From Lytechinus pictus (taxonomy: Eukaryota), in NCBI RefSeq assembly GCF_037042905.1, contig NC_087252.1:5768001-5832000 (forward strand): a DNA stretch of 64,000 bases, written 5' to 3'. Both the position numbers and the translations under genes were made by a program. Of the stretch, positions 7,524 through 58,596 are shown in pieces (the first letter of the stretch is position 1; the number at the start of each line of letters is the position of its first letter). The notes below the pieces were generated by a model. It was not told the DNA's origin and searched no databases. It worked only from the letters and a program-made list of their open reading frames with translations.

Positions 7524-7562
7524 GCCTCCGACGAAGATTCTGCTAGGATCGAAAGCTTAGGC
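7524..7562 (+). ncRNA. Variant minimal type I hammerhead ribozyme-like motif in the Penelope pLTR
   Basis: GCCT-CCGACGA-A-GATTCT-gct-AGGATC-GAAA-GC-TT-AGGC: helix I GCCU/AGGC, 6-bp helix II, palindromic AAGCTT helix III. Confidence 0.6.
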
Positions 7563-24389: not shown

Positions 24390-24989
24390 TCAGTTCTTTG
24401 ATGCGTAACATAGAATTACATGTATGAGCACACGTTTGGCTCGCTGAAAGTTGTGGACTTATTACGCTACTGACCCGTAGGTTGTAGAAAAAAAAAAAAA
24501 AAAAACCCACTAATAATGATCCTTATGGTGCATGAATATCATGAATCTATCTGCATGCCTAACCATAATTAATATAGAATTTCATGCGAACTCTGTCCCC
24601 CGAATCGCTGATGAATATTATCCGATAGTAATTCATCTTGAGCATGTCGAGTATGTAGTCTGACCAAGGAAACGAATTTCAACACGCGTAAGATAAATTT
24701 AGAAGATACAGCGTATACATCAATTATTTATCATCGTGATTTATATGCGCGGTATAGGGAAACTGATTTAGAGGGAAAATTTGTTTGCTTTGTTGCATGG
24801 TAACCGTAAACCCCAAAACAAACACACACAAAAATGTCCCAGTATAATTATTGAAAAAGTGTGCTATCCAAATGGGCCTACATCATTTCACAACACTGCA
24901 CATCTCAGAATGTTGCATTATGGGACAGAAAGGTCTCTCAAATCGGGCGTCTTCAGTGAGTACATAACACATGTGCATGGCTGATTTGT

Positions 24990-25899: not shown

Positions 25900-25913
25900 G
25901 TAACCATGACAAC
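25900..25913 (+). promoter_or_regulatory. RFX X-box motif GTAACCATGACAAC, followed by CCAAT at 25927-25931
   Basis: Matches GTHNYY-AT-RRNAAC at all positions; about 190 bp upstream of the sGC ATG. Confidence 0.55.
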
Positions 25914-26102
25914 ACACGCTTTGTGCCCAATGCCATTATCCTGTGCCTTCGCTCATAATGCAATCGGGAGAAAGTCAGATAGCTTTCAACCCTTCATTCA
26001 AAGTTTACTTCATCAGTTGCTCTCTGGCGGAAAGTTGAAAATATTTTGCTGTTCGTCACTTTTAATTTCTTCAAGTGAAGACTAGAAATCGAAGTGCCGG
26101 CT

Positions 26103-26105
26103 ATG
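26103..26105 (+). CDS. GUCY1B2: sGC exon 1 (ATG only)
   Basis: gccggctATG|gtaagt. An ATG-only first coding exon is typical of sGC beta genes. This is the nearest such site upstream of exon 2, with an X-box and CCAAT upstream. Confidence 0.7.
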
Positions 26106-29100
26106 GTAAGTTGACTCATTTTTTTTTCTAAGCGTATGACCAACTTATTTATTGTTTAGAATAAACGATTATCCATATAAAATACAAAATTTTACAAGGA
26201 AAATAAATTCTTTTTAATGTGAGAGGGATAGCTGAACATAGAAAGAAAATGCGGGTTGTTTTTAATGTGAGAGGGATAGCTAAACATATAAAAAAAAAAT
26301 CAGTTTGTTTGTTTGATTTTTATTTTGAAAGGGATTGCTGGACAAAGGATTGGTTTTTTTAATGATTGGGTTTAACCCTAACCCTAATGTTACGGTCGTT
26401 ACCTAAATTCTAATGATGCGGATTTAACTTAAATAATGATTGGACTTTACCTTTACCCTAAGAACTAGGCATTACCTTTCACGTATCAAACTATACTTTC
26501 TAAACCAGGCGTCAACACCGTTATCAGCGTTATTTCAAACATCAGCAATATCACAGTATTATTATTCCAAACACCATCGTTTTTTTTTTATTTCACCACA
26601 TCGCATACATTATCACCATTATCAGAATTATCGTCCTTCTCATCGTTTTTTTTTCCTTAAAATATCAGCACTATTACCATCATTACCCGAGCACAAACTT
26701 AATATACTAAGACACAAGACAAGAAATAGTGTTCGATGTAGTCTTCAATCTTCTTTTTGCTTTATTCATTCTTTCCATTTTTTTTCTTTAAACAAGCGCA
26801 CACCTACTTTCCAAGAATGCGTAAAGCATTTTCATTTATTTGAATGCAGGATAAAAGAGCATTGCCGATTAAATGACTTCCTCACGGGCATAGGTGACGC
26901 GACCGGGGACTTGACACCGGACTTTCCATGTATAAGGCGCCTTACACCACTCGGTTTACTTTATATAATACGTTACACCCTTTTTTTTTACGATTTTTTT
27001 AATTAATGATTTCGAGGTATTCTTTTTCATAAACAAAACAATACCGCGCTTTCCATATTTTTAGGAGCAATAATAACAATATGTTTGGTGAAGTATCGAA
27101 ATCATCTTGGGTAACGCTATTGTCGCAAACACATCTACATGTAGCATGTCCACGAGTATTATTTTCATGATGTGCAACTACATTTCTATCACAAATTATT
27201 TTGGGGGTCATGTTGTGTTCATTTGAGACTTGTAGAGGATAACCGAAGAAAGAAAGCTAGAAGTATTTACGCAGTGGGTGGGAAGTGCATGGCGTTGTAC
27301 AGGCAAGCCAGACTCGAATAGTTCAAGGAGGGCCCGCATGTTGTCATCACTCGCTGTCGCAGAACGTACTCTATCCCATGTAAATGATCAGAGGTTAGTC
27401 CAGTGCACACATGGTAGATGATAGTGTGCAGACTTCAACATAATCAGTGTAAGGGTCCACGGTCCGAAACGTCGGTGAGTGCAGGAACGACAGCGGCATG
27501 ACACCAGCCACGGCTACGTCATCTGGGAGGTGCAATTTCTCTGCCTTGCCTGTAGGGTAGCGAGAGAGGCAATCTGGAGCTCAATGACGGACGACAGGGA
27601 CATGGAACATTCTGAAGTTGTATCGCAGTGTCTGTCTTCTCCTTTAGATTCCGCAAGCGGGGATAAGGGATCCCCTCTAAGGTCCTATCGCTTAAAATTT
27701 GAATAGCGGCTTGTGGTCAACGGCAATGGTGAGATCCTCTCATCCCTAGACGAAGTACTGTGCCTTGTCAAGAGCGGTTGGTATTGCTAGTGCTTCGACT
27801 TCCACATGAGCGTAGCGGGATTCAGCAGCATGAGTAAATCGACTCCCTACAAGTATTACATTCCAACCTGTGGCACAGCAGAAGGAGATAGTGCCACCGC
27901 AGGTGCAGTGTTTCTACAGAAGCCACAAGCCAATGCCATCCTTACACCAGTCCATTGCCAGGCAGGTAGGCTTGCTGGGGTCAAATATCCTCGCGCCATC
28001 TTCGATCACGCCCGCAGTGACGACCTTGGACTCTTTAAAGGCACGCTGGAGGGCAGTTGTCCAGACGAATGGCGTACTGGGCTTCAGGAGTTGACGAAAT
28101 GGTAACATATTCTCTGTCATACTGAAGGCCTACAATACTTGGTTGACAAACCTGATCCATGAGCGCGCTTCGGTGATATTAGACGGTGCTGGGAAATCAA
28201 GAATCGCCTGCAAGTATTCCTGGCATTGACGGACACTGTCAGTTGTGATTGCGAAGCCTTCGAATTCGACGCCAAGTGTGAATTTGGAAGGGTTGATGAT
28301 GATTGCTTTTCTACCAAAGATGCCCAGCCACTCGACTGCTCGGAAGAAGCTGCCTGCTAATGTGTCAGCCCAGAGTAGGACGTCACCAACACACTTTGTC
28401 TTGCATGGTATGGCTGACACAATCTCGTCTTATCGCCTGGTGTAGCCCTCATCAGAAGCGATGTTTCACTGAGGCACGGTTTTGTAGCGGTATTTACCCC
28501 GGGGTGTGATGACTGTCGTGAGATGCCGATTTTCCTGGAAGATGGGTACACTGTGGTAGCCATTCCAAGCCTCACAGACTGTCTTCTGCTTGCCTTGTGG
28601 AACTGACCTCGCTTGTGTTGAATAGTTGTCTACTTGGAATAGATCTAGAGACCAAGTCTCTTAATAAAATGTATTATTTACAGATCTGCATTTACTAAGT
28701 CTAGATCTATAAAATTGTAGGTACTGTGTTACATCGTGATTCAGATTAGGTAGTTAATATAAATTCACAAGGGTGCTAGCTATACCTTATAATTATTTAT
28801 TACTGTGATTTATTGTAATTGTTCCAACTTTATCTTGTTTGATCATTGCTCAATGAGTTATAGTTCCGTGTTTCAATTATTACTTATTTAAAATGACGTT
28901 CATTTATTATGGTGCACTCTCGTGTACGTATCTTTTCCCTTGCAATACATTGAGAGTTATTTGTAATTACAAGTAACTACTTAAAGTGACATATTCCACG
29001 TAAGTCTTAACACAGTTATTAATAATGGTTAGATACCCATGTGCTATTTGCAGTAAGTCGGTTAAAAAAGAACCAACAGGCATTATTCCCAATGCGTGCA

Positions 29101-32100
29101 TATATCTTGTGGACGGGTCCTGAAAAGCACTTATGATTCAGATCTGCATAGCTCTGTCCTATGTGGTTGACGCAACAGCTACCCTTTGGGAATAATGTAG
29201 ATGAAGTAAAATGCAGTGAGATGTTAGCAAGTACATGTACATGTATTCAAGATAAATCGAATAGCAATTTCAAATTAAACAAAATGAAAGGCACCAAACT
29301 TGTCTATCTCAAAGTAAGGAGTCTGGTAAATCAGGTTGCTGATGTACAAAATTTGCTTAGTAATAATCATTATGATATGTTCAGTTTGTCTGAAACATGG
29401 TTGACTGAAGAAAATTCTGATAGTTTGTTTGATGTTAAAGAATATAAGTATGTGAGAAGAAATAAGGGCACCCATGGAGGAGGAGTGGGTGTGTTATATA
29501 TCTGCAAATACTTATGAAGAATAGATCTTGAACATGTAACATTATAAATTGTGTGGCTCGAACTGCGGCGTGCTAATAGGAGCTCTCTGTTCGTTGGTAT
29601 ATTGTATAGGAAACCTGATAGTCAAAATTATTTGAGAGTTTAGAACAAAATCTCGAGAAAGTATTTGCAAAGACATGTAATGTTATTATACTTTGGATTT
29701 AACTGTAACATAATAACTAAAAATAATCCGTCAAAAAAGTGAACAAATCTATGAATGGCCAAGCAGATGACACAGGTTATATCTCAACCCACGAGATTTA
29801 CGCCTAACAGTCAATCACTTGTTGATTTTTTTGTATTTCTGGCTCAGGGGTGAATCCGGAGTACAGATAACAAGTTTAAGCGATCGCTATGTAATATTTA
29901 AAAATTCCATGGGGGTTTGATATTCCATGTGACGTGCCGATGTTAACCCTTTGGAGCCGACCGGTTTCTGTAGAGGAAACATATCAGTATTTACTTTTTT
30001 TTTGTATATACACTCGGCAAAAAAAAGCTCTTGGACACTTAGAAAACTTAAAATATTTCATATAAATATTTGATTAAAGGAAAATTATTGTATGTCAACA
30101 TGACCAGACAATGTTCCTCTTCCAGTATGACATGACATTTTCATGTTAACAGTCATGCGTGGGCGGTTAAATGCTTTAAACAATAGAAATGTCAATAAAA
30201 AAAAACTGCAAGAAATTGACTATTCAAAAGCTAATGATCATGGCCATCCTGTAGGCATACATTCAACAATTTCAACAGGGGGTTGTCCCCATCGAGCGAA
30301 CATTGCCCAAAGATTTTTGGATGACCACAATGTTCAGCGCTCGGATCCATGGCCCGCTTGTTCACCAGACATGAACCCGATTGAACACTTGTGGGATCAG
30401 CTAGGAAAATCGGTCAATCAAAGAATTCAACCAGGAGACACTTTTCAAGATGTCCGGCGTTATCTCCTGGAACTCTGGAAGAATGGGACAAAATCACCCC
30501 AGAGCAAATTTATACAATATTACAATGCGAACGTGTACTATTCCAAGAGATTCAAAGACGGCAAGAATTATTCCAATACACAAAGGAGGGTCATATGATG
30601 TCGATAATGTTGGACCGATCTGTTCTACCTACCTTGTCTAAAATATTAGAAAGAGCAATCCACAATCAACTGTATGTACATGTATACTTGAATGAAAACA
30701 AACTACCTACAAATTCCCAGTCAGCTTTTAGACCTTTGTATTCTATTACTGCATGTATAACTGATTAGGGCGAATAATCGGAGGTATTTTCCTCGATTTA
30801 CGTAAATGGTTTGATGTTATACCACGCAATTTCATTTTTCGAAAACTGAAGTTTTTTAATTGAGGGTAACGAATATGATTGGAGTAAAGCATATTTAATA
30901 GACATGAGATAGTTTGTGGTAGTAAATAATCGTATCAGTGAAGTATCAGTAAAAGTATAAAAATCAGATCAGACGTCCCACAGGGATCCAAAAGTGGACA
31001 TAAGTGAAAAGTGTCCTCATGCAAGGCTTTTATGAAAGTTGATTATATCCATTACAAAGAAGTATATTAGGGAGACAAATTTGTATATAATTCAAAAAAT
31101 AAAGAACACATGGTTTTTACTAGGGGTGCAGAAAAAGTGGTTACTCACGTTACGGTTCAGATGGGCTATATGTCCACCAACCTATGGAATTGCCCTTAAG
31201 ATAATTATGTTATAAACAACCACACAGCCACGCTGTCATTTGAAAGTGATATTGACCTGGGATGAATTTTATTTTTAATATAACTAGCATTTTAAATTTA
31301 AAAATTGACTACATATTCGTGTATTGTTCTCTGCAGAGATTCGAGGTTCGATCCCTGGTCACGTCTTTAGGATGGTGACGTTAAAGGTCGGTCCCAGACG
31401 TAAATAATCATATCTGTTTGATACACGTCTGACAAAACTCAAATACACTGCTTCAAGTTTCAAGTTTATAGTTTGCTTCATTTAATTTCAACTCAACTCC
31501 CAATTTCATAACATAGAAATTTAGGCCGCAGTATACAATATTACAATTATGCAAATTAATACTATTTATATACATTGTTTACACCCTGACAGTTTAAAAT
31601 GAGAATGAATAAGTGTTCATTTGATTTACTTTCAGTACGGAAGCGTGAATGTTAGCATCAAAGACCTCGTCACTGAGAAATGGGGCAATGAGACGTGGGA
31701 GAAAATCAGGTAAGTGCCCCCAATTCATTTATTTGTTTCACTCTAATAAATAAGCAGACCAATCATACCGATGAAAGAAAAACAAAACCAAAACAACTAC
31801 AAGTTATTGACTTGTCTATGTTAACAAGACTATAATATCACGATTTTCATTTTGTTTCTCCCAAGGATAAAAGCTGGTGTTGATGATCGTTTTGTCAAGT
31901 TTGATATGTATCCTGACTCGATCACATATCAGATCGTCGGAGCTGCATCCGAGGTTTTAGGTAAGATCATTTTCCATTAACGTTCATGGGTCCTCCACCC
32001 TTGGACTCCCTCTTACATGTCTGAGTTCATGTCACCTATTGGTGGTGATTTTTTTTTTACCTGATTGCTAAGAAAGCATTAATGCTTGTAAGCAAGCAAC

Positions 32101-41100: not shown

Positions 41101-44100
41101 CGTATTACAAATATCGCATTCCACGCCTTGTCCTGAGGTCGTCCTGACCCTAGTGGAAAAATAAAAGGGGTTTTTACAAACACAGCTCTTGGCAGAACGC
41201 GACGTTTTTTACAAGTCAAGCGTTATCTGGAAATGAAACTGGTAGAATTAAGATGAAAAATTAGCATAGTTATCTGGACTGGTGATTTCCTCGGTTGGTT
41301 GGTTAAAAACACAAAATGTCACTACTCTAGGTGACACCCCACTCGCGCATACAAACACACACACACACACACATGTACATAACATGCGGCAGATGTCTTA
41401 TTTTGATAAACTTTCATGTTAAATCGCAAAATCGCATTTTATATTTCCATACCGACGCTGTTTAGGGACATACTGTACACGTTCATATAATCTAGTAATA
41501 GATTTGAGTGATAACGAGCTTTTTTTTTTTGGGGGGGGGTACCATAACTCGAAATGAAAATACCACCATTACCATTATGATATTTTCTTTTGCCATAATT
41601 TCCATTATCACCACAACCATGACCACCATGGCAACCATTATTGTTTACTAAAGTTTGCTTGATCTTTCATGTTGCAGGTGTTGATGGAAACGTTGTACTG
41701 GAGACCTTTGGAGTTTACTGGGTGGTTTGGTGCATGCGATGTGGTTACGACGCCCTCTTTCGGGCACTCGGGGCAACGCTGTCTGATTTCATGGCGAACT
41801 TGGATTTCTTACACAGTGTCTACATGAAGACCCTTTATCCAAAGATGACAGTTCCATCATTCAGAGTAGAAGAATTAGAGAACGACGAAATGATTCTTCA
41901 TTATTACTCAAACCGTAGAGGTCTTGGCAGCATTGTTTATGGTAAAAACCTAAATGTTTGTTATGATTTCATAAAAAAGAGTGCAATGTTAGCTGGCAGT
42001 AGAGTGCATGAAAAACGATAACAATTTCTGTAATGCACACATTTGAGGCTCATCTAATCAAATTGTTCCTTCTGATTGAATCATATGCATTCCGGTTGCT
42101 CATTCGGCTTGAATTAGAAAATTGGTTTAAAAAAAGCAATGGGGTTTCTTTTAGACAAGGGAGGGAGGGGGGGGGGGGTCTATGATGCAAGAACATTACG
42201 CACACCGGTCATTCTTGTAAAATAGAGACCTGTCACGGCTCACTCCCTTCTAGGTGTCAAAATGTGAATTAAAACGAAGTCACATCGATAAACATGATAA
42301 AGGAATCACACAACACTAATGAGCATCAATTGATTCTTTTATGTGATTTGTACAACGGTATTTTTCAAAATTGATTTTCGTTTAAAGGATGCGTGAAAGC
42401 GGTTGGAAGAATCATCTTTAACACGGAAGTGGAGATTGAACTTCTGTCACATGACCAGGCAGAGTATTGCGGGATACTAAAAGATCACTACAAGTATCAC
42501 GTGTGTTTCGTCAAGTTCGATCTAGCTCCGTTAGGTACTGATGGAATCGTTACGGAAGAGGTAACACAATCTATGGATTTTCTTTTTGATGGCTGGATGG
42601 AAATACGAATAATTAAAAACCGTATCTTGAATTAGGATTCCGAATTTAATTTTTAAGCATATTTCTCATCGAAATTCATTGGGAATAATATTGATTATTT
42701 TAGAATGAAATTTATGACAGAATGTTTAAGGATGAACATGTAAAATGTCAATCATAAAAAAAGAAAAATAAAAAAAATTAACATTGCGACAATACATGCA
42801 ATATGCTAGTATATATCCCTCTTATGAGTATTCATGAGTATCAAAACGATTGATCAATTCGTGATCAGGGGGCAAAGTATAATTTCAATAGGAAAGAAAA
42901 GCTCCGTATAGTTTTCTTGTAGCTCCGTTTATTTGTTGATATACTTTCATGGGCAGAATTGCGCATGCTCATGCTCGACATTTTCTCTCAACGTTAAACT
43001 GCGCATGCTCCCTGACTTTACCCGATCCCCATCATCAGCAAAAAATACAAATAAAATAAAGTAAAGAACAAGCTCTCGCTCAAACTAATTAGCGACAATC
43101 TGGAGAAAAAAACAGCGTGGAATCGTGTCTAGATTATCATACAAAAAACATGATTCCGACGGCCGTTCGTACAGGATCCTTTAATTTGGAACAGACATAC
43201 CTAACAAGGTGAGTCAATATCCAATAATTCTTAGAGCATATATTAAGCGTACGCGTATTTAGACCACTGCAGCAACGGCCAACGCAACGCAACGTACTTC
43301 TCACTACTAAGAGCAGTCGGGTAGAAGCCTCGCGCAGCATACCCGGGAACTGTTTAGCAATGGCTCGACAGGCCTAGGGTAGGACTAGGTCCGACAATGT
43401 TGGTGGGTGGGGTGGGGGATTTTTTTACCTGATTGCTAAGAAAGCATGAATGCTTGTAAGCAAGCAACCACAGGACCAACGGGTTAAGGTCCTCTCCGAA
43501 GGACCTGGTAATGATGATGAATGTCTTACCAAAGGGCACCAGCGCACCAAGTGGGAATCGAACCCGGGTCACCGGAATACGAATCCCCGGTCTACCGACT
43601 GAGCTATCGCGCCTCCTTAAGTGCGAGTCCAACCTCGGATAAATAATTCCCACTATACTTTCTCAAAGCCTGATATATTTGTATAATATCCAAATAAAAA
43701 AATCGAAAAAAAAATAAATAATTAGAAGTCAAAGGAAAAACGTCCATTGCAATAATATGCCCTGATACTAAATGAACATTAATAAATGTGTACTCATTCG
43801 TGTTAATGCTAAGATTTATATAATCGTGAGTAGTTGATAATTACCTTTTAATACTGAATTTGTGTTTCACCGTTAATCATTGTCTTCATAAATTTGCTAT
43901 TTTGTTCTAATATCATATTCATTTAGGAATACAACACGACTTAGCATCATTGTCAATCGTCTGAAGAGTTTACAGGCGTGTATATAGGCTGTTTAAAATA
44001 GTTTACTTTGCTAACAACTGGGGAAACGTTATCTTTAAAGATTATTAACACATTTCGATATTATGTATTAATCTAAATATGTTTGTTATGTTATAGGAAT

Positions 44101-47100
44101 GGACATCCATTGTTGATGGAACATCACATCTTATTGGTGGCGGTGGGTCTCGTCCACATAGCCATGATTCGATGAAGAAGGACTTCGTACGTGTTGGATC
44201 GGCCAAACGATGTCCTTTCTCAGGAATGGATATCGGAATGTTAGATAACAACATAACAGAGGGAAAGGTGTCCAGGGATAAAAGCCTCCCGGAGATTTCC
44301 GAAAAACGCATCCTGCCGATCAGTCATTTCAAACCGAAAGTCCCAGCAAGGATTCTTCTAGATCCCGAGACATTCTGCAAGACCTTCCCTTACCACATCC
44401 TCTTCAACGGTGACCTGATGATCATGCATTCTGGATCGAAGCTACAACAGTTCTGCCCGTTGATCAACGATGAGGGCGCTAGACTGAGGGATATCTTGAT
44501 TCTTGATCATCCACAAATCGAGTTGACGTCTGAGAATATATTTCTGTTTCTGAACATGATCTTCATGGCAACGCTGAATAAAGAAGCCATGGCACCACAC
44601 ATGCCGGTTGTTTCTCTGAGAGGTATGTATCTGCAACAGTTTTTTGAAAAATGACCGTTTCGTGTTAGGAGTCCAAAGTTATATTAGGCATTGTAATACC
44701 ATGAATACCGTTTCACAATATAATCTTACTGACATACATGTACATGTATATTCCGTGCGTAAAATGTAAACATTTTAATTGGTTCGCAACATACAAATTT
44801 CTTTCTTTCCTGCTTCACGTTCTTTAAACTCTTTCCCCCCTTTTTTTACCGTTCGCTCCTTTTTTTTCTAGGGGATTAATATCAGATGACACAAAAAAGA
44901 AGGACAATTTTTATTGGTTTTGTTAAGAAATGCTCCTTTGCAAAGGTTGGTAAGATTGTTACAGGAAAGAGCATCTGAGCTTAAGAGGAAAAAGAGGGTG
45001 AGATTAAAGATAAATTCCAGTAGTTGCAGTAAACACTGATTTCATGAGAAAGTCTGTAAAACCAGGTTTAATTATCAGTATATCATCGAGGATCTAGATC
45101 TGGTACAGTTACATAAACTGAACTTTGTGAAATCTTGAAATCTACGCTGAAAAATGTTCACATTGAAGATCACAAACACAGATAGGCACACGTGGGACAG
45201 TGTATTATTATTGCTGGAATAAAGACCCGACGGAAGTGACCGAATCCGCGCTTATTTTGCTTATTTCTCAGCAATTACACAATTTCTTCCAGAATCCTTT
45301 GGCACATATTTTTTATTCATACAAACAGACACTTGGGTGGTCATTATATTAGATTCTGTAAAAAGTCATTTTGAGATCGTTACCAAAACTGGAATTTATC
45401 TTTAAAAGATCATTGCAATGTTTTGATGTTTGCGATTGGAAATAGTTGATTATAGGAATAATAATTTGTTCATGATGAAATGGGGACGACATTTAATATT
45501 GAAACGTTGTCGATTCATTTCGTATACTAAAGTCTAAGTAGTATTACCTTGAGAGTCACGATTGAGTGATGGTATGTGATGGCGAGTAGGTGAGATGTGG
45601 AGTATCACTTTGTTAGGTGGATGACATCTGGTCAGGATCAAGGAAACATACATGTAGATTTTTTGAATAACTGACCAAAAGAATACACACACGTCCACAC
45701 CCTCTCTGAAACACACACACATTTGTATATATATATAAACAAAGTGGAAATGTTCTGCTCGGAGTTGGTCAAATAAACAATTCAAAAAGAAAGAAAAACT
45801 CCGTAATGAAAAGTATTTCACGAGTGATTTATTGACTAAGATCAACTTTGAAAATGCGTCAAGATCAACAACAGTAAAGCGTGCACTCTCTCAAGGAGCG
45901 CCCTTGATGTAGGCGCACCCGACAGAGGGGCGCTCTTACGTAACAAGGAAAGAGAGGAGGGAAGGAGGCGATGAAATAAAGGAGAAGGGATAGAGAATAA
46001 ACGAAAGAAATTAAAAGAAAAAGAAAAAGAAAAAAAGAAAAACGGGAAAGCAGAAACAAGAGAGAATGAGAAGCATTTGGAAAAAAGCAAACATAAGAAG
46101 AACAGAGAGTAGAATGAACAGAAAATGGATAAAATAGAGAGAGGGAGAGAGGGAGATAGAGAAGAGAAGGTGAGAGATAGAGGAGAGAGAGGTGGGAGAC
46201 ACAGAGAAGGGGTGAAATAGAAATAGAAAAACAAAAAGAAGAATAAAAGAAAAGAGAGACAAATTTAGGGGCGGAGTGGGAGAAAGAAAATAGAAGAAAA
46301 GGCAAGAATATACCAGCTAAGGAAGAGAAATAGGGAGAGAGAACGAATGAGAAAAAGGGGAGGGGAGAGAGCGAGAGTTAGATATTTAGAAAGAAAAGGT
46401 GACAACAACACACCAGAAAACAAAGAAGCAAGGAAACTTGACAAGAAACTAAGAGTTCATAGGGAAGAAGCGAAAGGCTGCGTTGACTCCGTTTGGTTGG
46501 AGACATCCCAGGCGGTGGATCATACGTTCTTCCCGGATTTTCCTCTCCTCATCTGTACCACCAGAACATCTCACGATGCCACATATTTTGAAGTTGCTGA
46601 TGGAGTGTCCTGGAAGATTGAAATGATGAGCAACTGGAAGTCTTGTGGTGTGAAGTCGGATTGATCGTAGATGTTCATTGGTGCGATCGGCCATCTTCCG
46701 TTTAGTCTCACCGACATATAGCATTTCACATGCGGTGCACACTATGACATAGATCAAGTTGGTGATAGTGCATGTCAAATGATCCCGAACAATCCAGGTA
46801 GACTTAGGTCCCTTGATAGTGGTATCTTGCAGTATGACGTTGCATGCATTACATCTGCTCCTTCCGCATCTCACGGTCCCGTGATTCTCCTCAGTAGTTG
46901 TAGATGTTAATTTGGAATGTACCAGCAGATTGCGGAGGCTCTTGTCTTTCTTATACGCGACCACTGGAGGATTCTTGAATATCTCCCGGTTATTCTCATC
47001 CTCCTTGAGAATGCCCGTCTTATTCATGATGGTTGAGACGATTCTCTCGGTAGACGGATGGTACGTTAGGACCAATGGTACCCGGTCCATGTTCTCTTGC

Positions 47101-49216: not shown

Positions 49217-49248
<32 letters not shown>

Positions 49249-50186
49249 TGCTACTATTGCTACTACTACTACTACTCCTGCTACTACTACCACAACTACT
49301 ACTACTACTACTACTAATACGACTACTCCTACTACTGTTACTACTACTACTACAATTGCTGCTATTTCAATTACTATTCCTACTATTGCTATACTTTTAC
49401 TTCTACTACTACAAATACATTACAACAAAAACAACAACTACTACTACCAGGGGCGACGGAACCAAGCGGCAGGAGGAGCACTTGCCCCCCCCCCCCCCAT
49501 TCCCCGAAGGAAAAAATGCTTAGAATGGAAAAGGCTTTTTTTATGAAATATGCCCCTTTTTATAATGAAATACCATTTTCGAAAAAAAAAAATTATTTTA
49601 GGTTAGAAAATCACAAAAATTTTGGCTCGCGCTTCAATAAAAAAATATTGTTTTGTAAGGTAGCCATTCTGCTCCTGTTTTAAATAAATACTTAGAATGT
49701 CCAGTTTACAGGTCGGAATATCACAAGTTCGCGCTCGCATTATTCGATTGGTGAGATATGTATCCTATTCATGAGACACTAAGTTCCGTTTTTAACAGGT
49801 TACTTCTCTGGTTAGTATTAACAAATATTAAATGTATTATTACATGAAATGTCCAAAGTTTGAGCTAACGTTTCGCGCTTAACAGATTAGCATTGTGATA
49901 GGCAAAAAGCGAGTTTTACTACCCCAGATTTTTTTTTTCAAACCGCTCGCTCGCTACGCTCGCTTGTGTATGAACCATATTACATATCTTTTCGATCAGC
50001 AATCATTTCAAAATGGCTATGCTCAGCTTAATTACTACAAAAACACACATCTACTTCATGAAGATGATAATCTCATGATAAATAAAATCCGTTTGTACTA
50101 AAATGCCTACTTTGACATATAAGTGCCCTTTTTTGCTTTGCCCCCCAATGAAATTACGTTCCGCAGTCCCTGACCACTTCTACTAT

Positions 50187-50242
<56 letters not shown>

Positions 50243-53200
50243 CTACTACCACTACTAGCACTACAACTATTACAACAACTACTACTACTTCTACTACTCG
50301 AATATTACTCCTACTCCTACTACTACTGCCGCTACTGCTACTATATCATTGTAAATGTTCTCATTTTCTCTGCCTATAGGTCAGATGGTGTGGATGCCAG
50401 AATCCAATCTCTTCGTATTTCTCTGCTCTCCTCAACTCACATCTCTTAATGACCTCCGTGACAGGAAAATGCACTTTTCAGACATCGCATCACATGATCT
50501 CACACGTGACCTGATACTTTTTAATCAACAGAGAATCGCAGAGGTAACTTAATAATATGGACATGGTGGATTTCGAACGTGATACAAGTTTTGGGATAAT
50601 AATTAACGTTGACAAACTGCTCAGAATATCGTCAGTGTTTTTTGTCATTTTTATTTTGAATGAAAGTGCATGATAGAAAACTCAATGACAGAGATAATCA
50701 ACGACCCACAGCCCACGTTTTAGTTGAGACTAGTTAAAGAAATGGAAGTGAATAATTTCTGTCACGTAAAATAATAAGCTATTCGTAAACTTATTGGGTC
50801 CGTTTATACTCTTGACCCTCATCATTAAAAAAGATAAGAAATTCCAGCCTACTTCTAACGCAGATTTGAGATTTTGCTGCGCTTGCATTATTTGTTTGCA
50901 AACAGCAATTTATTGGCAGATGGAAATAAACTTCACATTAAACATTTTTTTTTTTTTTTTTAAATCTGCAAGTGAACGAATAAAGGGAAAAAAAAAATCT
51001 TCTTCTGTTAAATTAACAAAAATACATGCCATAAAAATTATTCCACCCTGACGTTTTTTAATACTATCTTTATTCTGTATTGCAAATTTTAATAGTTTTA
51101 GTAGACAACATACACACGGGCATTGGTAGCTGAAATGAGGTCAGGTGAGACAAATAGTTTCTTTCTAATTGGACATAAAGGTTGAGATGAATGTACATAA
51201 AGAACACAACTCTTTCTCTCTGCACATGCTATATGGCATGGCAATAATAGCATGGCTTGAACGGCAATATGCTTAAAAATATACACGTTTCCGTAATTTT
51301 TTTTTTTTAATAATAATGCAATGTGCGTGAAGACTTCCAAAAAAATACATAGGCCCACAAAACCCCCACAAAAACACCAAATCCATAACCGAATCCATGA
51401 ATATATAACTGTATATGCATAGTTTTTACTCTGTTTTGAAGTTGTTGATATTGTTTTCAGGTTGAGTTAGCAAAGCAGCTCGAACAGAAGAAAGAGGAAC
51501 TGCGCATACTCATGAGAGATCTCGAACTGGAAAAGAAGAAAACCGATACACTTCTGTACTCCATGCTGCCGAAAGAGGTCGCTAATGATCTGAGAGATGG
51601 CAAGAAAGTTGAGGCAGGTTAGTAAACTTGGATTACTAAAATACCCATTTACGTAAATCCTGGTGAAAATTATGCTTGTACTCCGTGCGTAGATACATAC
51701 AATTGTGAAATTCATTTTTTTAATATTCGAAAGAGAAAGGAGAGGGAGCAGTGTCTTCGATGGCTGGTGTATTAAGTAACATTCCATTGTGTTCAGAAAG
51801 ATCAGCAAAAATAAATTGCATATTACCAAACCGAAAATATTAATTAGAGGTTAGTTTAAGAAGGTAGGATGTTGTAATTATCATTCGAGGAATCAAACGA
51901 AAGTTAGCCCGAAAAGAAGAGGGGGGGGGGGGCGGGGTAAAATAAAGCAAACACATATGATTAATAAAAACTTATTTGTCTATATAAATTTGTGTAATTA
52001 TAACGGGGAAGGCAAAAACGAGAAAAAAGACAATTTTTACAATTTTTTTCTCACCTAGAGTGTAGTATATCACCTTTACCGATTATATGTATTATTTTCC
52101 TTTGTTTTATCTTCTGGCGCTCACGTCCGGCATTGATCTTTTTCCACCCTCTCCTTTTTCTTATCTCACGCCCTCTGTAGGTGATTTTCAGCAAGTGACG
52201 ATTTCCTTCAGTGATATTGTCAAATTTACAGATATGTGCTCCCAGTGTGACCCTATACAGATCGTTCACCTTCTCAATGAGATGTACGTTGTGTTTGATG
52301 AACTAACAAGTGTGCACAATGTCTACAAGGTACGTATTGCTCCATACATCTGCATCCCTAACAATAATTATATAATTAGGTGAATGAAAATGAAATAAAC
52401 ACATAGATGTGAATACAAATGAATACGTGATAAATTGAAGGATTCAATAAAGTGGATAAAACAATGATTAGTAAATAAAAAATATAAAATTTGGTCTGAA
52501 AATTGTAGGCAATTAATTATTGGCCTTATTATCCTTGTTGATTATTTATTAAAGATTTAATATTTTTGATGAGCGATAGATGTGCCAATAGAAGAAAAGT
52601 TAGAAAGAAATGCATAAATGCAACTTCCATGTGCATTCTAAGAACCTTCTCTATCTGAAGTGCATTTGAATTCGTTGAAATTAACGCAGCAACGCGAAGC
52701 CGCCGCGTTAAACTATTTGATTAATTAAGCATCATTAACAATGCTATTGTTTTCAGGTTGAAACGATCGGGGATGCGTACATGACGGCAGGAGGATTACC
52801 TATTCCTAATGATACCCATGCTGAACAGGTCACGTGTTTTGGTCTTGGTCAGATTGAAGGAGTCAAGAGCATCTCCTCGCCCGTCACAGGCGAGAAAATA
52901 CAGGTAAAATAATTAAAATAACATGCATATAACACTGCCCATTTCAGAAAAAAAAAATATTTCGAGGTTCGTTAAAAACCCTGTTTTAATTCGGAACTGT
53001 GGTGTACGCATTCACTTCACTTGTGTCGAGTGCTGCACAATGGGGTAAAATTCGTGATGGAAAAAAAGCAACGCAGGTTGCAAGCAACTACCCAGTGTTT
53101 AAAAAGTGAGAGTCATAAGTGTTTGAAAAGTGAGAGTCATAATCAGTAGGCCTCGGCTGTTTTTTTTTTTTTACTTATTCATTAAATTTTTTTTTACAGG

Positions 53201-56200
53201 GGCCACGGAACCGTGGAGGGGGGGGGGGGGGGGGCTTTAACCCTAACTTAGTCAAAAGCGTGTAAAAACGTGAAAATTACTACCTGATTGTGATTTGGGG
53301 GCATTGTCAGCCCCTCAGTTTCAAAACCGTTCCGCAGCCCCTATTGTATTTCCATCTGCCAGTGTCTAACTCTTTACGATCAACATGATCAAAAACACAC
53401 AAACAATTAAGGAAACATAATAAAGGTTTGGCGACAAACCATTGTCACCGAAAATGTATTTATTTGTTTTTCTTTTTAAAAAAGTGGCAATTTCCCTTTT
53501 CCCCCCATATGACATCCTTCTCCGTAAAACTTAGATTCGAGTTGGTATTCACACCGGTCCTGTAGTAGCTGGAGTTGTTGGTGTAAAGATGCCTCGATAC
53601 TGTTTGTTTGGTGATACTGTCAACACGGCATCGAGAATGGAAAGCCATGGGGTGCCAGGAAAAGTTCATATCAGCCCTTCTACATACAGGTAGTTTACAC
53701 TATTATTGTCCTTAAAATTCACATTAATTTAAACACTTCATAAATATTTACTCAATCTTTCTTTTCATTTTATCTTTTCATAAACGACGTCACCGATTTG
53801 TAGGTTTTGACCTTGACGTAACCATGATAACAGTTGATGATAGGGTCGTATTTTTTGGAAAGCCTGTAGCGCCCTCAGTACTTTGGATGCCCGAATGACT
53901 AAGGTGTTAAACAAAAAACCCTTTCGAAATAGTCGTCCCATGACCATAACTTTTACCTTGTTGACCTTCGCGTGATTTCCAGGGGATTTACAGTGAAAGT
54001 TCAGTTAAAATCTTACCCCTTTTAGATAGAGGGAAACTACATATCCCAAAGTTAACATAGAAGGATACTCACAAATAACCTAAACCTCGGCGATAGTTCA
54101 ATCAGGACACTCATCCACAACATGGTGGAAATCCAAGGAAGAACATGCAATAACCAATGTTCAACCATACGATCATGTGATTAACTTAAATTGTTTTACG
54201 TTGTATTGTCCCACACATTATGTGTATATTATACAGAGCAATTAAGGGGAAAGGATTTGAAACAGAGGCGAGAGGTGGAACGGAAATCAAAGGCAAGGGC
54301 AGAATGATGACACACTTTGTGACGTCACGAACTAACCAGGTCAATGATGACTCTTCGGCGTCAGAGGAAGGTATTGAACCTTGAACTTTGCCCTTTAACA
54401 ATCCCATCTTGTTATTTAAAGTTAAAGGATATTTTTTATACATTTAAACTATTTACCAATTGAACATAAAACAGCCTATTTCAACGTTTAGATAACCGGC
54501 AGAGTATGCTAAGAATATTACACGAACTTAAACTATTTATTATTATTTATTTATTTGAATATATTTATTCAGGATGACAAGATCAGTTAAAAAAACTGTT
54601 TTACATCATGGTCCTGACATTAAATACATAAATACATATAAATCAATAATATATTTAAAATGAGATAAAAATCAAAGTAATATCTGAAAATTTGTGCTTA
54701 AAGTGATACAATGCAATACAAGACAATTAACAATATGTTATACAAAGAAATATAGTAAATGTTATTAAATTGAAGTAATTATCTACGAATTAAAGAACAA
54801 ATTTCGGGGACGAAGTGTATGAATTAATAGTTGCAGAACTATATAAAAATTGATAAAAATCTGGATAATAAAACATCTTTTTAAGTGGAACACTGATATG
54901 AAATAGAAATAAAAAAGTGGTATAATTTACATAAAAGTGTGAGAGTACATAAAAATAGTGTTTCATGTATTTATGAACCAAACTGAATTATAACTAAATA
55001 AAAATTTATACATAATAAATTGTAACGAATTACAATAAAGATATAGGTACTATAAACCTGATAAAAACAATGATTGGATCGAAGTGTATTTGAACAAAAT
55101 GGTATGTAAAATGTACATGAGACTCCATATCGGGGTTTGGGATACAATTTCTTTCTTTCACAATTAAAACTCTCAGGTAATGTAGTACATATGGATTGCC
55201 CATCAGGGTTTTAAAATTAATTTCTTGTATTTAAATTTAAAATTATCGAGTGATGTTGCATTTTGGAGGCTGGGTGGAAGCTCGTTCCATATTTTAGCAC
55301 CAGCATATCTAAATGATTATTTGAATAATTCTAGCTTAGATTTAGGTATTATTACATTTAAAGAATCTACGTTTCTAGTGTTAAATCCATGGCGGTCACA
55401 ATACATCTCAATTTCATTACATAATCGTCCTGGAGCAGTGCCATTAATACATTTGTACATAAGTGTTGCAAGAAAGAAGTTGCGTCTTTGTTCAATGCTT
55501 GGTCACAAGTCCGTCATTAACTTAGTTCCATTGTATTTCTCGTAATCAAAGTTTTTCGTGACTATTCGTGCTGCTCTTTTTTGTGTTCTCAACAATTTCT
55601 TTTTGTAAACTTCTGGGCAATTACCCCGTACAGAACATGCATAATCATAGCATGGTTGAGTTGTAGACTTATACAATATGTTCAATAAGTTAGAGTTAAC
55701 AAATTTACTAAGTTTGGCAAGAATATGGACTTATATTCGACAGATTTACAAACAATATTAGTGTGAGCATTCCATTTCAACTTATCATCAATCATGAGTC
55801 CAAGATATTTCATGTTTTTTACTTGCTCAATCTTGCGCCCTTCAATATAAATGTTAAGTTCATTTAAGGATTTTGATTTTTATTGCATCACCTTAGTTTT
55901 ATCTTATTAATTCGAAGTCTGTTATTAGCATACCATTTATTGATTTCAGCCATGTTTGTCTGTAATTTTGCATTTGCATCGGTATTATCTTTCCCACTAA
56001 GATAAACAACCACATCATCAGCGAATATATTGCATGAACCATTTGTAACATATTCCGAAATATCATTAATAAAGATAAGGAAACGAGTGGGGCCAAGGGC
56101 ACTACCCTGAGGAATACCTACTGCGGGGTACCTCGTGTGTGATCGTTTACCTTGATGTTGTACACTTTGCTTTCTATTAGAAATATAACTCTGAAACCAT

Positions 56201-58596
56201 TGAAGCTGATTGCTACGTATTCCATACTTCTCTAATTTATAAATCAGTAAATCATAATCGATGCAATCAAAGCATTTAGAAATATCTCAGCAAGCAGCTA
56301 CTTTTTTTTACTTTAATTCATGGCTTCATAAAAAATCATCAAGTATGCAAGGTAGACTAGTTGAGGTAAAGTGATTAGGTAAAAAGGCTGATTGGTCGGC
56401 GTTGATCATGTCATTTTTATTTAAGTATTTCAATAGTTGGGATTGAACCGCTTTTTCGATGATCTTAGCAACATGGCTAACAAGAGAAATAGGCCTATAA
56501 TAATTTCTATCTTTCTTTGAACCCTTGCCTTTATAAACCGGGGTTGTTCGTGCCATTTTCCAGTCGTCGGGTATTTCGCCAGAAGATAAACTTTTATTGT
56601 AGATAAGGGTTAGAGAATCACATATGTATGGTGCTGCGATATTTAATATTTTTTTTATCTAGGCCTAAAACATCCACCTTACTCCTTTTGTCAAGGCGAG
56701 TAAGATGTTTTAAAATTGTGTCTATCTCAACATTTTTAAATTCAAAAGATTAAACACTTTCAGGATGTTTCCATTCAATTTTTTTTTCAGGAAAAGTATT
56801 TGCTATCATTTTACTAATGTTTGCAAAATGATTGTTCATTTCATGACAGTAAAGCCGTTCATAACAAGCCAGCCTTTGTCGAAAATCGGTGTATCGAAAC
56901 AGCAGTGTCGTCCTGTACTGACCGCACAGAAATGTTTTTAGCGCTAACAATGCGCTAAAAATGCGCTAACAGAGGCCCTGTTACAACTGGTAATGTGGCA
57001 GCGATGCACTACTGACACATTGAAATAAATGTTTTGACTTCACAATCCGAAAGATGTTACTGGGCTTACTGTTAGCGCTCTCTTAGGTTAACAAAGTTAC
57101 TGTGCGGTCGGCACTGGACTCTGGACAAACCTAATCTTTTCAATTGTTGTCCTGCAAAATCTTAAGACGAAGTGCTCTCCCGGTCCACCAATTTTCGACA
57201 ATGCCCTCTAATCCGTCCATTGTGTTTTGACGGGCATTTTCAGTAAATTCTGCAGAAAGTATATGTGAAGCGGATGCTAAAATACGATCCCAGTTGTTTG
57301 GTCCCACATATCCAGTTCCATGTAGTATTGTCACTATTGTATCAAGAGTCAAATGCACAAACCGGGTCAATGTATTGGTTTAAAAGACTGTTTCACAACG
57401 GGTTAGTAAAAGAACAATAAGTTCAACAATACGGGAACACTTACCAAGGCTTGATAAATTCCGTGTTATGGTGCACTTTTCAAATCCTTCCTGTATTTCG
57501 ACGGCGAAAATAGCCAATCACCACTGTGATCAATGTAATTGCGAATACAGCATTCCGTTATACGTGATTGGGATGTTTAAACCTATTTATCCGTATACAG
57601 TGGTATATGCAATCAAATGGTGGTCACACTGCGTTCGAGCGTACATAATGTAGATTTAGAGTCCATTTTATCTTCAATCAAACTGGTACGAAGTGAGGAT
57701 ATTTATCTATGTTAACACAAATTGCAACCAAATCCACGTGTGACATACCTTTCCCGATGTCGAGAATCATTGGTATCTAATCCCAGATCTAATATAATTC
57801 TTGCAAGAATGATCCCCTTCCCTTTAAAGCTTATGCGAGGGAAAAGTTCCGGCGTCTGACCGCTATCTATTGTTACAACATGAACAAAGTTACGCACACA
57901 TTATTTTGTGAATGTCGATCACGTGGTAAACGTTGTGTTGAGAAGTTGACGTTTTCTTGAATAGCTTTTTAAGTCTGCCAGTAAGTCTATTCTCTTGAAT
58001 TAGTCTATTCACCATGTTCATCCGATTACTAGCAATATTTATGTATACTTTTTTATCAATACCAAATAAACGAACTTAATTGTTCCATAACATTTTCTCA
58101 TTGTTCCTCCACGTGTGTTGTTGTTGTTCTTCATCTTCTCCTCCTCCAGCATCGCTTCCTTTCTATGTTGCTGCTGCTGCTACAGCTACTACTGCTATGC
58201 CGCTACTGCTTTTACTACTGCTGCTACCAATACCATTATTAGTGCTACTGGTAATAATTAGTACATTCTATCCACGAATATCAGTGTGAAACATTATATT
58301 AATCATTTGAATTAGGTTAATTTCGTTCAATAAAGATCAGTTGTTGCTTCACCATTCATCTTTATTACAAATATTCAGAGGCCGATGACCAGGCTAGTTC
58401 TGATGACAAAGACGTGCAGGCTCCCGTGATTATCAACGAACCGATCCCGACAACGAATATCGATGGGAAAAACACAACCACATCAGATGTTACTGCGCCC
58501 TCTGGTGTCAAGAACGAGCCATCAAAGACACAGTCCTCATCATCTTATGATCATGATGGAAGGAATACATCTTCGACATTATGCATTGTGCTTTAA
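26103..58596 (+). CDS. GUCY1B2: Soluble guanylate cyclase beta-2-like gene, 13 coding exons, 752 aa (H-NOX, PAS/HNOBA, coiled coil, class III cyclase, CaaX)
   Basis: Exons 26103-26105, 31636-31709, 31866-31960, 41678-41941, 42388-42560, 44097-44622, 50380-50543, 51461-51617, 52181-52329, 52757-52903, 53535-53689, 54237-54370 and 58379-58596 join through GT-AG introns with consistent phases into a 2259-nt [38 protein letters not shown], the cyclase motifs and terminal CIVL resemble vertebrate beta-2 as I recall it; orthology was not computed. Confidence 0.9.
27260..28612 (-). mobile_element. Degenerate Ty3/Gypsy pol fragment (RT-RNase H) in sGC intron 1
   Basis: [42 protein letters not shown] and [35 protein letters not shown]; many stops and frameshifts; boundaries approximate. 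Confidence 0.85.
29025..30990 (+). mobile_element. Degenerate CR1-clade LINE ORF2 (PHD, APE endonuclease, RT), interrupted
   Basis: [72 protein letters not shown] near 30975. Confidence 0.85.
30011..30512 (+). mobile_element. Tc1-like transposon remnant (left TIR plus transposase C-terminus) nested in the CR1 element
   Basis: TA|CACTCGGCAAAAAAA start; [18 protein letters not shown]c1 catalytic-Glu motif. Confidence 0.85.
31330..31447 (+). mobile_element. SINE fragment
   Basis: B box-like ggttcgatccc followed by a gacgttaaa..ggtccc body. Confidence 0.4.
31636..31709 (+). CDS. GUCY1B2: sGC exon 2 (H-NOX N-terminus [25 protein letters not shown])
   Basis: tttcag|TAC...AG|gtaagt, 74 bp, phase 0-2; matches the MYGFVN..YG..VWE.I pattern. 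Confidence 0.92.
31866..31960 (+). CDS. GUCY1B2: sGC exon 3 ([31 protein letters not shown])
   Basis: cccaag|G...G|gtaaga, phase 2-1; H-NOX Y.D..T...V.AAS.VL pattern. Confidence 0.92.
32047..32250 (-). mobile_element. tRNA-derived SINE family B, copy 1
   Basis: Minus strand ggaggcgcgatagctcagtcgg (A box) ... gggttcgattcc (B box); highly similar to 35768 and 43418. Confidence 0.88.
35589..36256. mobile_element. Kolobok-type MITE interrupted by a SINE
   Basis: ttaaagggaaagttca ... cagggtgaaattccgatttaa. Confidence 0.5.
35768..35968 (-). mobile_element. tRNA-derived SINE family B, copy 2
   Basis: Near-identical to 32047-32250. Confidence 0.88.
37814..38049. mobile_element. TA-flanked MITE with CAC(A/T)CTTAAAA termini
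   Basis: ta|cacacttaaaatgttaggcaa ... ttgccctactattttaagagtg|ta; related half copy at about 20082. Confidence 0.6.
38580..38986. mobile_element. Kolobok-type MITE, right portion
   Basis: Ends cgtcagggtgaacctcccct|ttaa; body similar to 20208 and 35589. Confidence 0.5.
40048..40283. mobile_element. MITE with CATGGCC termini
   Basis: catggccacacg ... ctctgcgtacggccatg; related sequences at about 21370 and 59601. Confidence 0.5.
41678..41941 (+). CDS. GUCY1B2: sGC exon 4 (heme ligand His103 in NLDFLH; YxSxR motif HYYSNR)
   Basis: ttgcag|GT...G|gtaaaa; inside ORF 41641..42021; carries PSFR and YYSNR. Confidence 0.95.
42388..42560 (+). CDS. GUCY1B2: sGC exon 5 (H-NOX C-terminus [19 protein letters not shown]...TEE)
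   Basis: ttaaag|GA...GAG|gtaaca, phase 1-0; ORF 42393..42635. Confidence 0.88.
43418..43616 (-). mobile_element. tRNA-derived SINE family B, copy 3
   Basis: Near-identical to 32047-32250. Confidence 0.88.
44097..44622 (+). CDS. GUCY1B2: sGC exon 6 (long linker plus PAS/HNOBA start, [11 protein letters not shown])
   Basis: ttatag|GAA...G|gtatgt, phase 0-1; in frame with ORF 44172..44654. Confidence 0.92.
45008..45401. mobile_element. Kolobok-type MITE with perfect 14-bp TIR and TTAA duplication
   Basis: TTAA|AGATAAATTCCAGT ... ACTGGAATTTATCT|TTAA. Confidence 0.85.
45632..47984 (-). mobile_element. 5'-truncated Penelope-like element (Neptune-type), RT plus GIY-YIG, in sGC intron 6
   Basis: RT motifs [29 protein letters not shown] (47201..47836). 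Cys-rich linker CGRSRCNAC and [17 protein letters not shown] nuclease (46449..47204). Frameshift near 47350; CT-rich 3' UTR; ~90-bp inverted repeats at the ends. Confidence 0.92.
49130..49447. repeat. (TAC)n microsatellite, left part
   Basis: Seen directly. Confidence 0.9.
49448..50172. mobile_element. hAT-like MITE inserted into the (TAC)n tract
   Basis: caggggcgacggaac ... gttccgcagtccctg; flanks actactac / accacttc (6 of 8 match). Confidence 0.65.
50173..50345. repeat. (TAC)n microsatellite, right part
   Basis: Seen directly. Confidence 0.9.
50380..50543 (+). CDS. GUCY1B2: sGC exon 7 ([36 protein letters not shown])
   Basis: ctatag|GT...GAG|gtaact; HNOBA signature. Confidence 0.95.
51461..51617 (+). 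CDS. GUCY1B2: sGC exon 8 (coiled coil ...[29 protein letters not shown])
   Basis: tttcag|GTT...G|gttagt; translated by hand; signalling-helix motif LLYSMLP. Confidence 0.95.
52181..52329 (+). CDS. GUCY1B2: sGC exon 9 (cyclase [12 protein letters not shown]...VYK)
   Basis: ctgtag|GT...AAG|gtacgt; inside ORF 52087..52383. Confidence 0.95.
52757..52903 (+). CDS. GUCY1B2: sGC exon 10 ([15 protein letters not shown]...PVTGEKIQ)
   Basis: tttcag|GTT...CAG|gtaaaa, 147 bp, phase 0-0. Confidence 0.95.
53197..53342. mobile_element. G/C-run MITE (CAGGGGCC termini), copy 3
   Basis: caggggccacggaac ... ccgttccgcagcccct. Confidence 0.65.
53535..53689 (+). CDS. GUCY1B2: sGC exon 11 ([39 protein letters not shown])
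   Basis: acttag|ATT...AG|gtagtt; guanylate cyclase signature. Confidence 0.96.
54237..54370 (+). CDS. GUCY1B2: sGC exon 12 ([28 protein letters not shown]...SEE)
   Basis: atacag|A...G|gtattg, phase 2-1; RG..E.KGKG.M.T.F motif. Confidence 0.92.
54535..56850 (-). mobile_element. Degenerate CR1/L2-clade LINE (RT plus AT-rich 3' UTR) in sGC intron 12
   Basis: [68 protein letters not shown]; (aaat)n-type tail near 54540. Confidence 0.88.
58115..58260. repeat. Mixed trinucleotide (TGT/CCT/CTG/CTA) microsatellite
   Basis: Seen directly. Confidence 0.75.
58379..58596 (+). CDS. GUCY1B2: sGC exon 13 (Ser/Thr-rich tail ending in CaaX box CIVL, then stop)
   Basis: attcag|AG is phase-compatible with exon 12 and in frame with ORF 58414..58596; TGC ATT GTG CTT TAA. 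Confidence 0.8.

Follow-up and report, generated by a model that had tools for sequence, protein, structure and literature searches.

The stretch of Lytechinus pictus DNA analysed here, hereafter the window (64,000 nucleotides; assembly GCF_037042905.1, contig NC_087252.1, positions 5,768,001 to 5,832,000, forward strand), harbours a gene for a so-called soluble guanylyl cyclase (sGC) of the beta-2 type, and the locus raises the question of whether its product may be a membrane-anchored gas sensor that is delivered to cilia or sensory endings. The reading which we favour, with a probability of roughly 0.4, combines an active enzyme, a prenyl anchor and delivery to a cilium or sensory tip, and does not require RFX control. 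It is likely from the sequence that the protein is a prenylated, self-sufficient gas-sensing enzyme, while delivery to a cilium or sensory tip, based on two independent sequence clues together with precedent, is a fair bet.

According to this reading, the window protein, an echinoid paralog (lineage A1) of the beta-2 sGCs, would bind a diatomic gas at the heme of its H-NOX domain, most likely nitric oxide (NO), since the protein lacks the distal tyrosine found in O2 binders. From there the signal would be relayed through a PAS domain and a coiled coil to the cyclase domain, which would produce cyclic GMP (cGMP) at two active sites formed with a second copy of the same protein. The CIVL end would be prenylated, providing an anchor that is predicted to be weak on its own because the tail has neither a polybasic patch nor a second cysteine, and this weakness would make carriage by the prenyl shuttle PDE6delta most likely. 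Release would occur at a specialised membrane, e.g., that of a cilium or of a sensory dendrite tip, in a small set of cells, as for GCY-35 of the worm. Two of the features described below are new in this analysis, i.e., the INPP5E-like pattern at positions -3 and -1 of the tail and the polar changes of the heme pocket that are confined to echinoids.

Gene structure and transcripts

The gene lies on the plus strand and comprises 13 exons, from the ATG at 26103 to the TAA at 58596, which form a single open frame of 752 amino acids, with GT-AG borders at 12 of the 12 introns. The predicted protein equals the L. pictus RefSeq entry XP_054761128.2 ('guanylate cyclase soluble subunit beta-2-like') at 752/752 residues, and the gene is already annotated in RefSeq under an automatic name. 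Its parts are as follows, with the evidence in brackets:

25992..26102, plus strand: 5' untranslated part of exon 1, the contig end at 25992 being a minimal 5' extent and not a mapped transcription start (X3 contig, 25992-26104, joined to exon 2 at GT..AG)
26103..26105, plus strand: coding part of exon 1, the ATG only (gene model, RefSeq protein, X3 contig)
31636..31709, plus strand: exon 2, H-NOX, holding Ser4 and Ser8 (gene model, Pfam, contigs)
31866..31960, plus strand: exon 3, H-NOX (gene model, Pfam; exon 2-3 joint in X1 and X3 contigs)
41678..41941, plus strand: exon 4, H-NOX core with Trp72, Trp75, His103, Tyr134-Ser135-Arg137, Ile143 and Tyr145 (Pfam HNOB, E 1.4e-24)
42388..42560, plus strand: exon 5, end of H-NOX, holding Cys147 (gene model, alignment)
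44097..44622, plus strand: exon 6, disordered linker and start of PAS (HNOBA) (Pfam HNOBA, E 1.2e-13; low predicted local distance difference test score, pLDDT, at 212-279)
50380..50543, plus strand: exon 7, PAS and start of coiled coil (Pfam HNOBA, E 3.6e-15)
51461..51617, plus strand: exon 8, coiled coil (Pfam HNOBA, E 8.3e-12; helix 420-468 in the structure model)
52181..52329, plus strand: exon 9, cyclase domain with Asp497 (Pfam Guanylate_cyc, E 1.6e-14)
52757..52903, plus strand: exon 10, cyclase domain with Glu537 and Asp541 (Pfam Guanylate_cyc, E 3.7e-06)
53535..53689, plus strand: exon 11, cyclase domain with Arg605, Cys607, Asn614 and Arg618 (Pfam Guanylate_cyc, E 1.7e-25)
54237..54370, plus strand: exon 12, end of cyclase domain (gene model, Pfam, homolog search)
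58379..58596, plus strand: coding part of exon 13, disordered tail and stop (gene model, RefSeq, homolog match)

The splices between exons 1 and 2 and between exons 2 and 3 are present in contigs of runs X1 and X3. The X3 contig differs from the window at 7 of 113 letters over the exon 1 stretch, and therefore derives from another allele or a close relative. Support for the joint between exons 12 and 13 comes from RefSeq models in five species of urchin and from the similarity of exon 13 between species, for which the Strongylocentrotus purpuratus ortholog matches 58378-58593 with 49% identity (E 4e-8). Orthologs were found in L. variegatus (XP_041470939.1, 96.5% identity to the window protein), S. 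purpuratus (XP_030834778.1, 87.7%) and two species of Diadema (XP_072166485.1, 76.5%, and XP_071506404.1, 75.9%), all of which are CaaX-terminated and bear the same automatic name. The intact frame, the spliced contigs and the conserved orthologs rule out a pseudogene, and nine cyclase queries against the window returned matches only to this gene.

In S. purpuratus two A1 models (P0002 and P0123) share one scaffold. One of them, XP_030834771.1, stops at the end of exon 11, without the cyclase end and the CaaX box, and may represent a partial duplicate, an assembly duplicate or an incomplete model; in the window, read-through past the exon 11 donor runs into a stop immediately.

Family placement

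The first-pass annotation, made from the letters of the window, had called the gene a beta-2-type sGC, and a tree including beta-1, beta-2 and Gyc-88E sequences agrees with this. In the 39-row tree, from which near-duplicates and long branches were left out, the window gene falls inside a deuterostome beta-2 clade supported at 99/97, and the same grouping was recovered in a 50-row quick tree with a Shimodaira-Hasegawa-like approximate likelihood ratio (SH-aLRT) support of 99. This clade is sister to a protostome clade of mollusc, annelid and nematode genes, the nematode members being gcy genes, and stands apart from the Gyc-88E-like, beta-1 and alpha sequences, the nematode gcy placement being in agreement with PMC1435932. 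Two other identities were rejected, i.e., beta-1, on the basis of Asp497 and the tree, and an O2 sensor of the Gyc-88E class, on the basis of the tree and Ile143.

The deuterostome beta-2 clade contains three lineages, one of chordates and two of ambulacrarians (A and B); lineage A includes two echinoid genes, of which the window gene is A1 and the other A2. Paralog B groups weakly with chordate beta-2 (82/71 in the 39-row tree), and its H-NOX domain is 58% identical to that of rat beta-2 as compared to 40% for the window protein, so that paralog B may be closer to vertebrate beta-2 than the window gene. By this placement the window gene is itself a derived duplicate that does not offer the best view of how beta-2 was in the ancestor, which weakens the earlier suggestion that it hints at an ancestral role for beta-2.

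Domain architecture and catalytic residues

Pfam matches by exon, together with the structure model and a fold search, give the domain order H-NOX, PAS, coiled coil and cyclase. An alignment-based structure model (mean pLDDT 78.8) placed all four domains with confidence, predicted disorder in the linker (212-279) and the tail (671-744), and had sGC beta chains as closest folds; a single-sequence model was uninformative (pLDDT 34.8). The intact heme-binding H-NOX domain and the complete catalytic residue set noted at first pass were both recovered. The proximal His103 and Tyr134-Ser135-Arg137, which constitute the YxSxR motif, align with the heme residues of human beta-1, and D497, E537, D541, R605, C607, N614 and R618 are all present in one chain. 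Both metal-binding Asp residues are included, where the three beta-1 rows carry Gly at 497. Heme binding and cyclase activity are thereby predicted with high confidence.

Each of the seven catalytic positions is kept in at least 119 of the best 120 homologs of the window protein, the set to which all homolog counts given here refer, and a CaaX box ends 91 of these 120. On the basis of these counts, the stand-alone, membrane-anchored anatomy is the norm for the beta-2 family and no peculiarity of this gene. Such conservation is also what one would expect of an enzyme in which every chain contributes both halves of the active site, and it argues, together with the reported activity of rat beta-2 alone (Koglin 2001, as cited in PMC5196021), against an obligate partner. 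It is unlikely, in our estimation, that the protein needs to pair with paralog A2, with paralog B or with an alpha subunit in a heterodimer, in the manner of GCY-35 with GCY-36, even though L. pictus possesses at least three beta-2-like genes and a heterodimer with alpha subunits has been raised for mouse Gucy1b2 (PMC4396857). Part of the residue set is by itself no proof of homodimer use, given that rat alpha-1 likewise retains both Asp residues. Gas-regulated activity of the window protein without an alpha subunit is considered probable.

The C-terminal tail

The first of the two clues to subcellular location lies at the extreme C-terminus:

58573..58593, plus strand: Ser746-Thr747-Leu748 followed by the CaaX box Cys749-Ile-Val-Leu, candidate prenylation site (sequence; family census; rule of PMC5512577)

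The terminal CIVL, reported previously from the letters, is confirmed and is encoded at 58582-58593. CaaL ends are geranylgeranylated, and the CIVL end of the window protein is very probably prenylated, the lipid probably being a geranylgeranyl group. The 20 residues before the CaaX box contain two Lys/Arg and no Cys, i.e., no polybasic patch, as compared to six Lys/Arg in the paralog B tail of L. variegatus.

The low-nanomolar binding of the proteins INPP5E and GRK1 to PDE6delta depends on two positions ahead of the prenylated Cys, -3 being Ser and -1 being hydrophobic, and in INPP5E this pattern gives an exclusive ciliary location, with ciliary enrichment being abolished when the residues are swapped (PMC5512577). 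The window tail exhibits Ser at -3 and Leu at -1 of its candidate prenylated Cys, reading S-S-T-L-C as compared to S-S-T-I-C in INPP5E. Among the 91 related CaaX-bearing homologs, Ser occupies -3 in 77 and Ile, Leu, Met, Phe or Val occupies -1 in 78, with both present in 65, while Ser at other tail offsets is found in 1-23%. Both residues occur together in 14/14 tails of lineage A, 2/2 of amphioxus and 55/74 of vertebrates, as opposed to 0/8 in paralog B, where -1 is Thr or Ala, and 1/8 among Gyc-88E-like tails; overall, urchin and rat tails are only 17% identical. The pattern may be regarded as a clue to ciliary location that is independent of the promoter motif described below. The tail found no match among solved structures, and a literature search, with most subscription journals outside its reach, returned no prior report of the -3/-1 pattern in beta-2 tails.

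The paralog B tails with Thr or Ala at -1 (P0096, P0135, P0118, P0073, P0105, P0106, P0087 and P0040) suggest a membrane target different from that of lineage A.

The promoter motif

The second clue lies upstream of the gene:

25900..25913, strand not assigned: X-box-like 14-mer GTAACCATGACAAC, candidate RFX site (motif match; the minus strand bears a GTTGYCA half-site)

A consensus X-box had been claimed 190 bp before the ATG. The position holds: 190 bp separate the last base of GTAACCATGACAAC from the ATG, and the motif ends 79 bp before 25992, the furthest 5' end reached by a spliced contig. The term consensus holds only for a relaxed nematode pattern: the strict X-box, GTNRCC-N0-3-RGYAAC, as quoted in 10.1101/2022.11.11.515474, does not fit GTAACCATGACAAC and has 0 matches in the whole 64-kb window, and the word has three mismatches to a perfect palindrome. 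The relaxed pattern arose in 22 of 5000 dinucleotide shuffles of the 614-bp promoter, a word with at most three mismatches from the palindrome arose in 108 of 5000, and when the window was divided into 104 tiles of 614 bp, three of them held the relaxed pattern. The promoter motif beats local chance. A relaxed X-box with a half-site is present near the furthest 5' contig end.

RFX sites cluster near transcription starts, and in the choanoflagellate S. rosetta the RFX motif is found in 21.9% of conserved ciliary promoters as compared to 2.0% of all promoters, conserved ciliary genes accounting for 44 of the 239 promoters that bear the motif (10.1101/2022.11.11.515474). The motif makes RFX control more likely but does not demonstrate it, and we regard GTAACCATGACAAC as a functional RFX site only tentatively. 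RFX control would indicate which cells make the protein, not its subcellular site. No head-to-head neighbour able to own the X-box was found among 61 outside frames searched (mostly upstream, the rest intronic or downstream; a subset of 121), a search that could miss a neighbour with a non-coding first exon; these frames gave only transposon domains and one sub-threshold match. An exact scan of metagenome contigs returned 0 stretches for the promoter 26-mer.

Over the entire window, the relaxed pattern has five matches at four sites as compared to 0.60 expected; matches away from the promoter include 53818-53831 (intron 11) and 11045-11058. A 13-bp X-box-like word, GTTGCATGGTAAC, is located at 24792-24804, 1.1 kb upstream of the promoter motif.

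Possible ciliary delivery and its alternative

Several observations weigh against ciliary delivery. With regard to the tail, the same hydrophobic residues (Ile, Leu, Met, Phe or Val) are also common at -5 (54%) and -10 (43%) among the 91 homologs, and the tail counts come from related rows, 74 of them vertebrate, without a proteome-wide CaaX control. Two nematode gcy tails have Thr at -1 although GCY-35 depends on PDL-1, and the -1 residue is therefore no clean predictor. The PDE6delta rule was measured on farnesylated peptides, with 'geranylgeranyl' occurring 0 times in PMC5512577, and an additional retention signal is postulated in the same paper. With regard to the promoter, the best X-box look-alike of the window lies not there but at 47628, inside a coding frame for reverse transcriptase and GIY-YIG in intron 6. 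As to expression, raw reads from X10 (1315 million letters) and X11 (1246 million letters), which amount to about 6% of either run and come from an unknown tissue, left the exon 1-3 bins at zero depth, and the literature search turned up neither expression nor localisation data for the gene. An urchin sperm flagellar proteome (PMC7024835) does not mention an sGC in the passages and four supplements that were searched, which is a weak point as it concerns another species.

These points lend weight to a different reading, in which the protein is a membrane-attached NO receptor without a special link to cilia, e.g., in muscle, gut or neuron bodies, the X-box-like word being incidental or part of a non-ciliary RFX programme and the -3/-1 residues reflecting prenyl processing or general shuttling. 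Expression of beta-2-like genes in contractile and mixed cell types is consistent with it, as sponge Gucy1b2 is found in contractile pinacocytes (10.1101/758276) and planarian gucy1b2 in many cell types (PMC6821139). Likewise, echinoderm muscle is relaxed by NO, sGC and cGMP, as in the starfish stomach, and the urchin pylorus is under NO control (reviewed in PMC10603993). The presence of four X-box-like sites in 64 kb, the best of them in a reverse-transcriptase frame, also fits an incidental word. However, the promoter motif is positioned 79 bp from the furthest 5' contig end, where RFX sites cluster, and is outside detected repeats; lineage A retains an INPP5E-like tail that paralog B lacks; and the characterised relatives act in sensory neurons. 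We consider a non-ciliary receptor a serious possibility, close behind the favoured reading, while PDE6delta-dependent delivery to a cilium or dendrite tip, argued from the tail and by analogy, is given slightly less than an even chance.

The same literature search found no functional study of an urchin beta-2 gene. The text and two small supplements of PMC8683087, a single-cell study of S. purpuratus larvae, contain neither 'guanyl' nor 'gucy', the marker tables perhaps being elsewhere.

The heme pocket

A Tyr in the distal pocket confers O2 binding on atypical sGCs (PMC1435932), and the window protein carries Ile143 at this position. NO selectivity is therefore predicted, and NO rather than O2 is the rather likely direct ligand. 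The rule does not settle the stimulus, since mouse Gucy1b2 is required for the low-O2 responses of type B olfactory neurons, independently of NO synthase (PMC5196021), despite the Ile that beta-2 proteins have in the pocket.

A number of further positions set lineage A1 apart. Ser4, Ser8, Tyr145 and Cys147 are each found in only 3 of the 120 homologs, which are the A1 orthologs, where the commonest residues are Phe (103), Cys (109), Pro (100) and Ile (113), respectively; Trp72 and Trp75 are found in 10 of 120. The polar changes are confined to echinoids and the pocket is strongly conserved, and between Lytechinus and Diadema the A1 H-NOX domain is 92% identical as compared to 80% for the catalytic domain, the corresponding values for paralog A2 being 69% and 75%. 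In addition, both sea-cucumber members of lineage A (P0008 and P0009) possess the canonical distal Tyr, which none of the remaining 118 homologs has, and this makes them candidate O2-binding beta-2 cyclases, and lineage A thus seems to vary its ligand pocket.

It is conceivable on these grounds, and in view of the low-O2 role of mouse Gucy1b2, that the A1 pocket has been retuned to sense O2 or the redox state rather than NO, which would be compatible with either location of the protein. We consider this improbable. Ile143 occupies the very position at which Tyr confers O2 binding, Tyr145, two residues further along the helix, probably faces away, and that positions 4, 72 and 147 line the distal pocket is an assumption.

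Repeats and mobile elements in the window

A Penelope-like retroelement relic occupies 45632-47984 on the minus strand, in intron 6, with RVT_1 and GIY-YIG matches at 46452-47932; it is flanked by inverted arms of 90 nt that are 90% complementary, and it holds the X-box look-alike at 47628. A long, young, foldback-like inverted repeat is located at 5906-7580, with arms of about 0.5 kb each that are 94-98% complementary. Three intronic copies of a repeat of about 200 bp, resembling a short interspersed element, lie at 32053-32251, 35772-35970 and 43420-43617. Intron 1 contains a DDE transposase relic (30131-30595) as well as a GC-richer stretch (27300-28630) with broken minus-strand frames, by eye like a retroelement relic, four frames of which have no Pfam match. 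Reverse-transcriptase fragments of the long interspersed element type are present in intron 12 (55891-56658).

Comparison with known systems

The gene is ordinary, and its value lies in what it allows to be tested. Should the -3/-1 tail act as a sorting signal for PDE6delta, it would predict the site of vertebrate Gucy1b2 in oxygen-sensing olfactory neurons, and it would extend the PDL-1 route of the worm to deuterostomes. The larva is transparent, and NO action in it is established.

Vertebrate GUCY1B2 shares with the window protein the clade (99/97), the domain order, the full catalytic set, the Ile at the pocket position and the CaaX tail. It differs in that it groups weakly with urchin paralog B, while the window gene belongs to lineage A, and in other pocket residues; RFX control is not described for it in the available parts of PMC5196021 and PMC4396857. 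The statement at first pass that the role of beta-2 is poorly defined is out of date, given the requirement for mouse Gucy1b2 in low-oxygen sensing by olfactory neurons. The mouse cells bear cilia that are short, or else microvilli (PMC4396857), and in zebrafish, too, gucy1b2 is a marker of olfactory neurons (PMC4480006).

GCY-35 and GCY-36 of C. elegans are likewise prenylated heme cyclases, the nematode gcy genes falling within the clade that is sister to deuterostome beta-2. In the URX neuron GCY-35 is concentrated at the cilium-like ending (PMC7520127), and it needs PDL-1, the PDE6delta ortholog, to reach the ciliary ending (PMC7839455), and GCY-36 without its isoprenylation signal loses its ciliary location (as reported in PMC3192831). 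Unlike the window protein as read here, the two detect O2 by way of a tyrosine in the pocket and function together as a pair, and the two nematode tails sampled have Thr at -1.

A wider scheme that would link GCY-35 of the worm to mouse Gucy1b2 is speculative and, taken as a whole, a long shot. In this scheme the ancestral beta-2 cyclase would have been a prenylated gas sensor sorted to sensory cilia by PDE6delta; lineage A, amphioxus and the majority of vertebrates would have retained the INPP5E-like tail, paralog B would have lost it, and the echinoid copy would be an RFX-driven O2 or NO sensor of ciliated cells with a retuned polar pocket.

INPP5E and GRK1 resemble the window protein in the Ser at -3 and the large hydrophobic residue at -1 before the prenylated Cys (PMC5512577), but they are unrelated enzymes that were tested as farnesylated peptides, where the likeness of the beta-2 tails is one of sequence alone. 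Finally, the atypical sGCs of the Gyc-88E and gcy-31-like type share the full catalytic set and the CaaX tail with the window protein, yet they form a separate clade (100/100), carry the pocket Tyr and exhibit a hydrophobic -1 residue in only one of eight tails.

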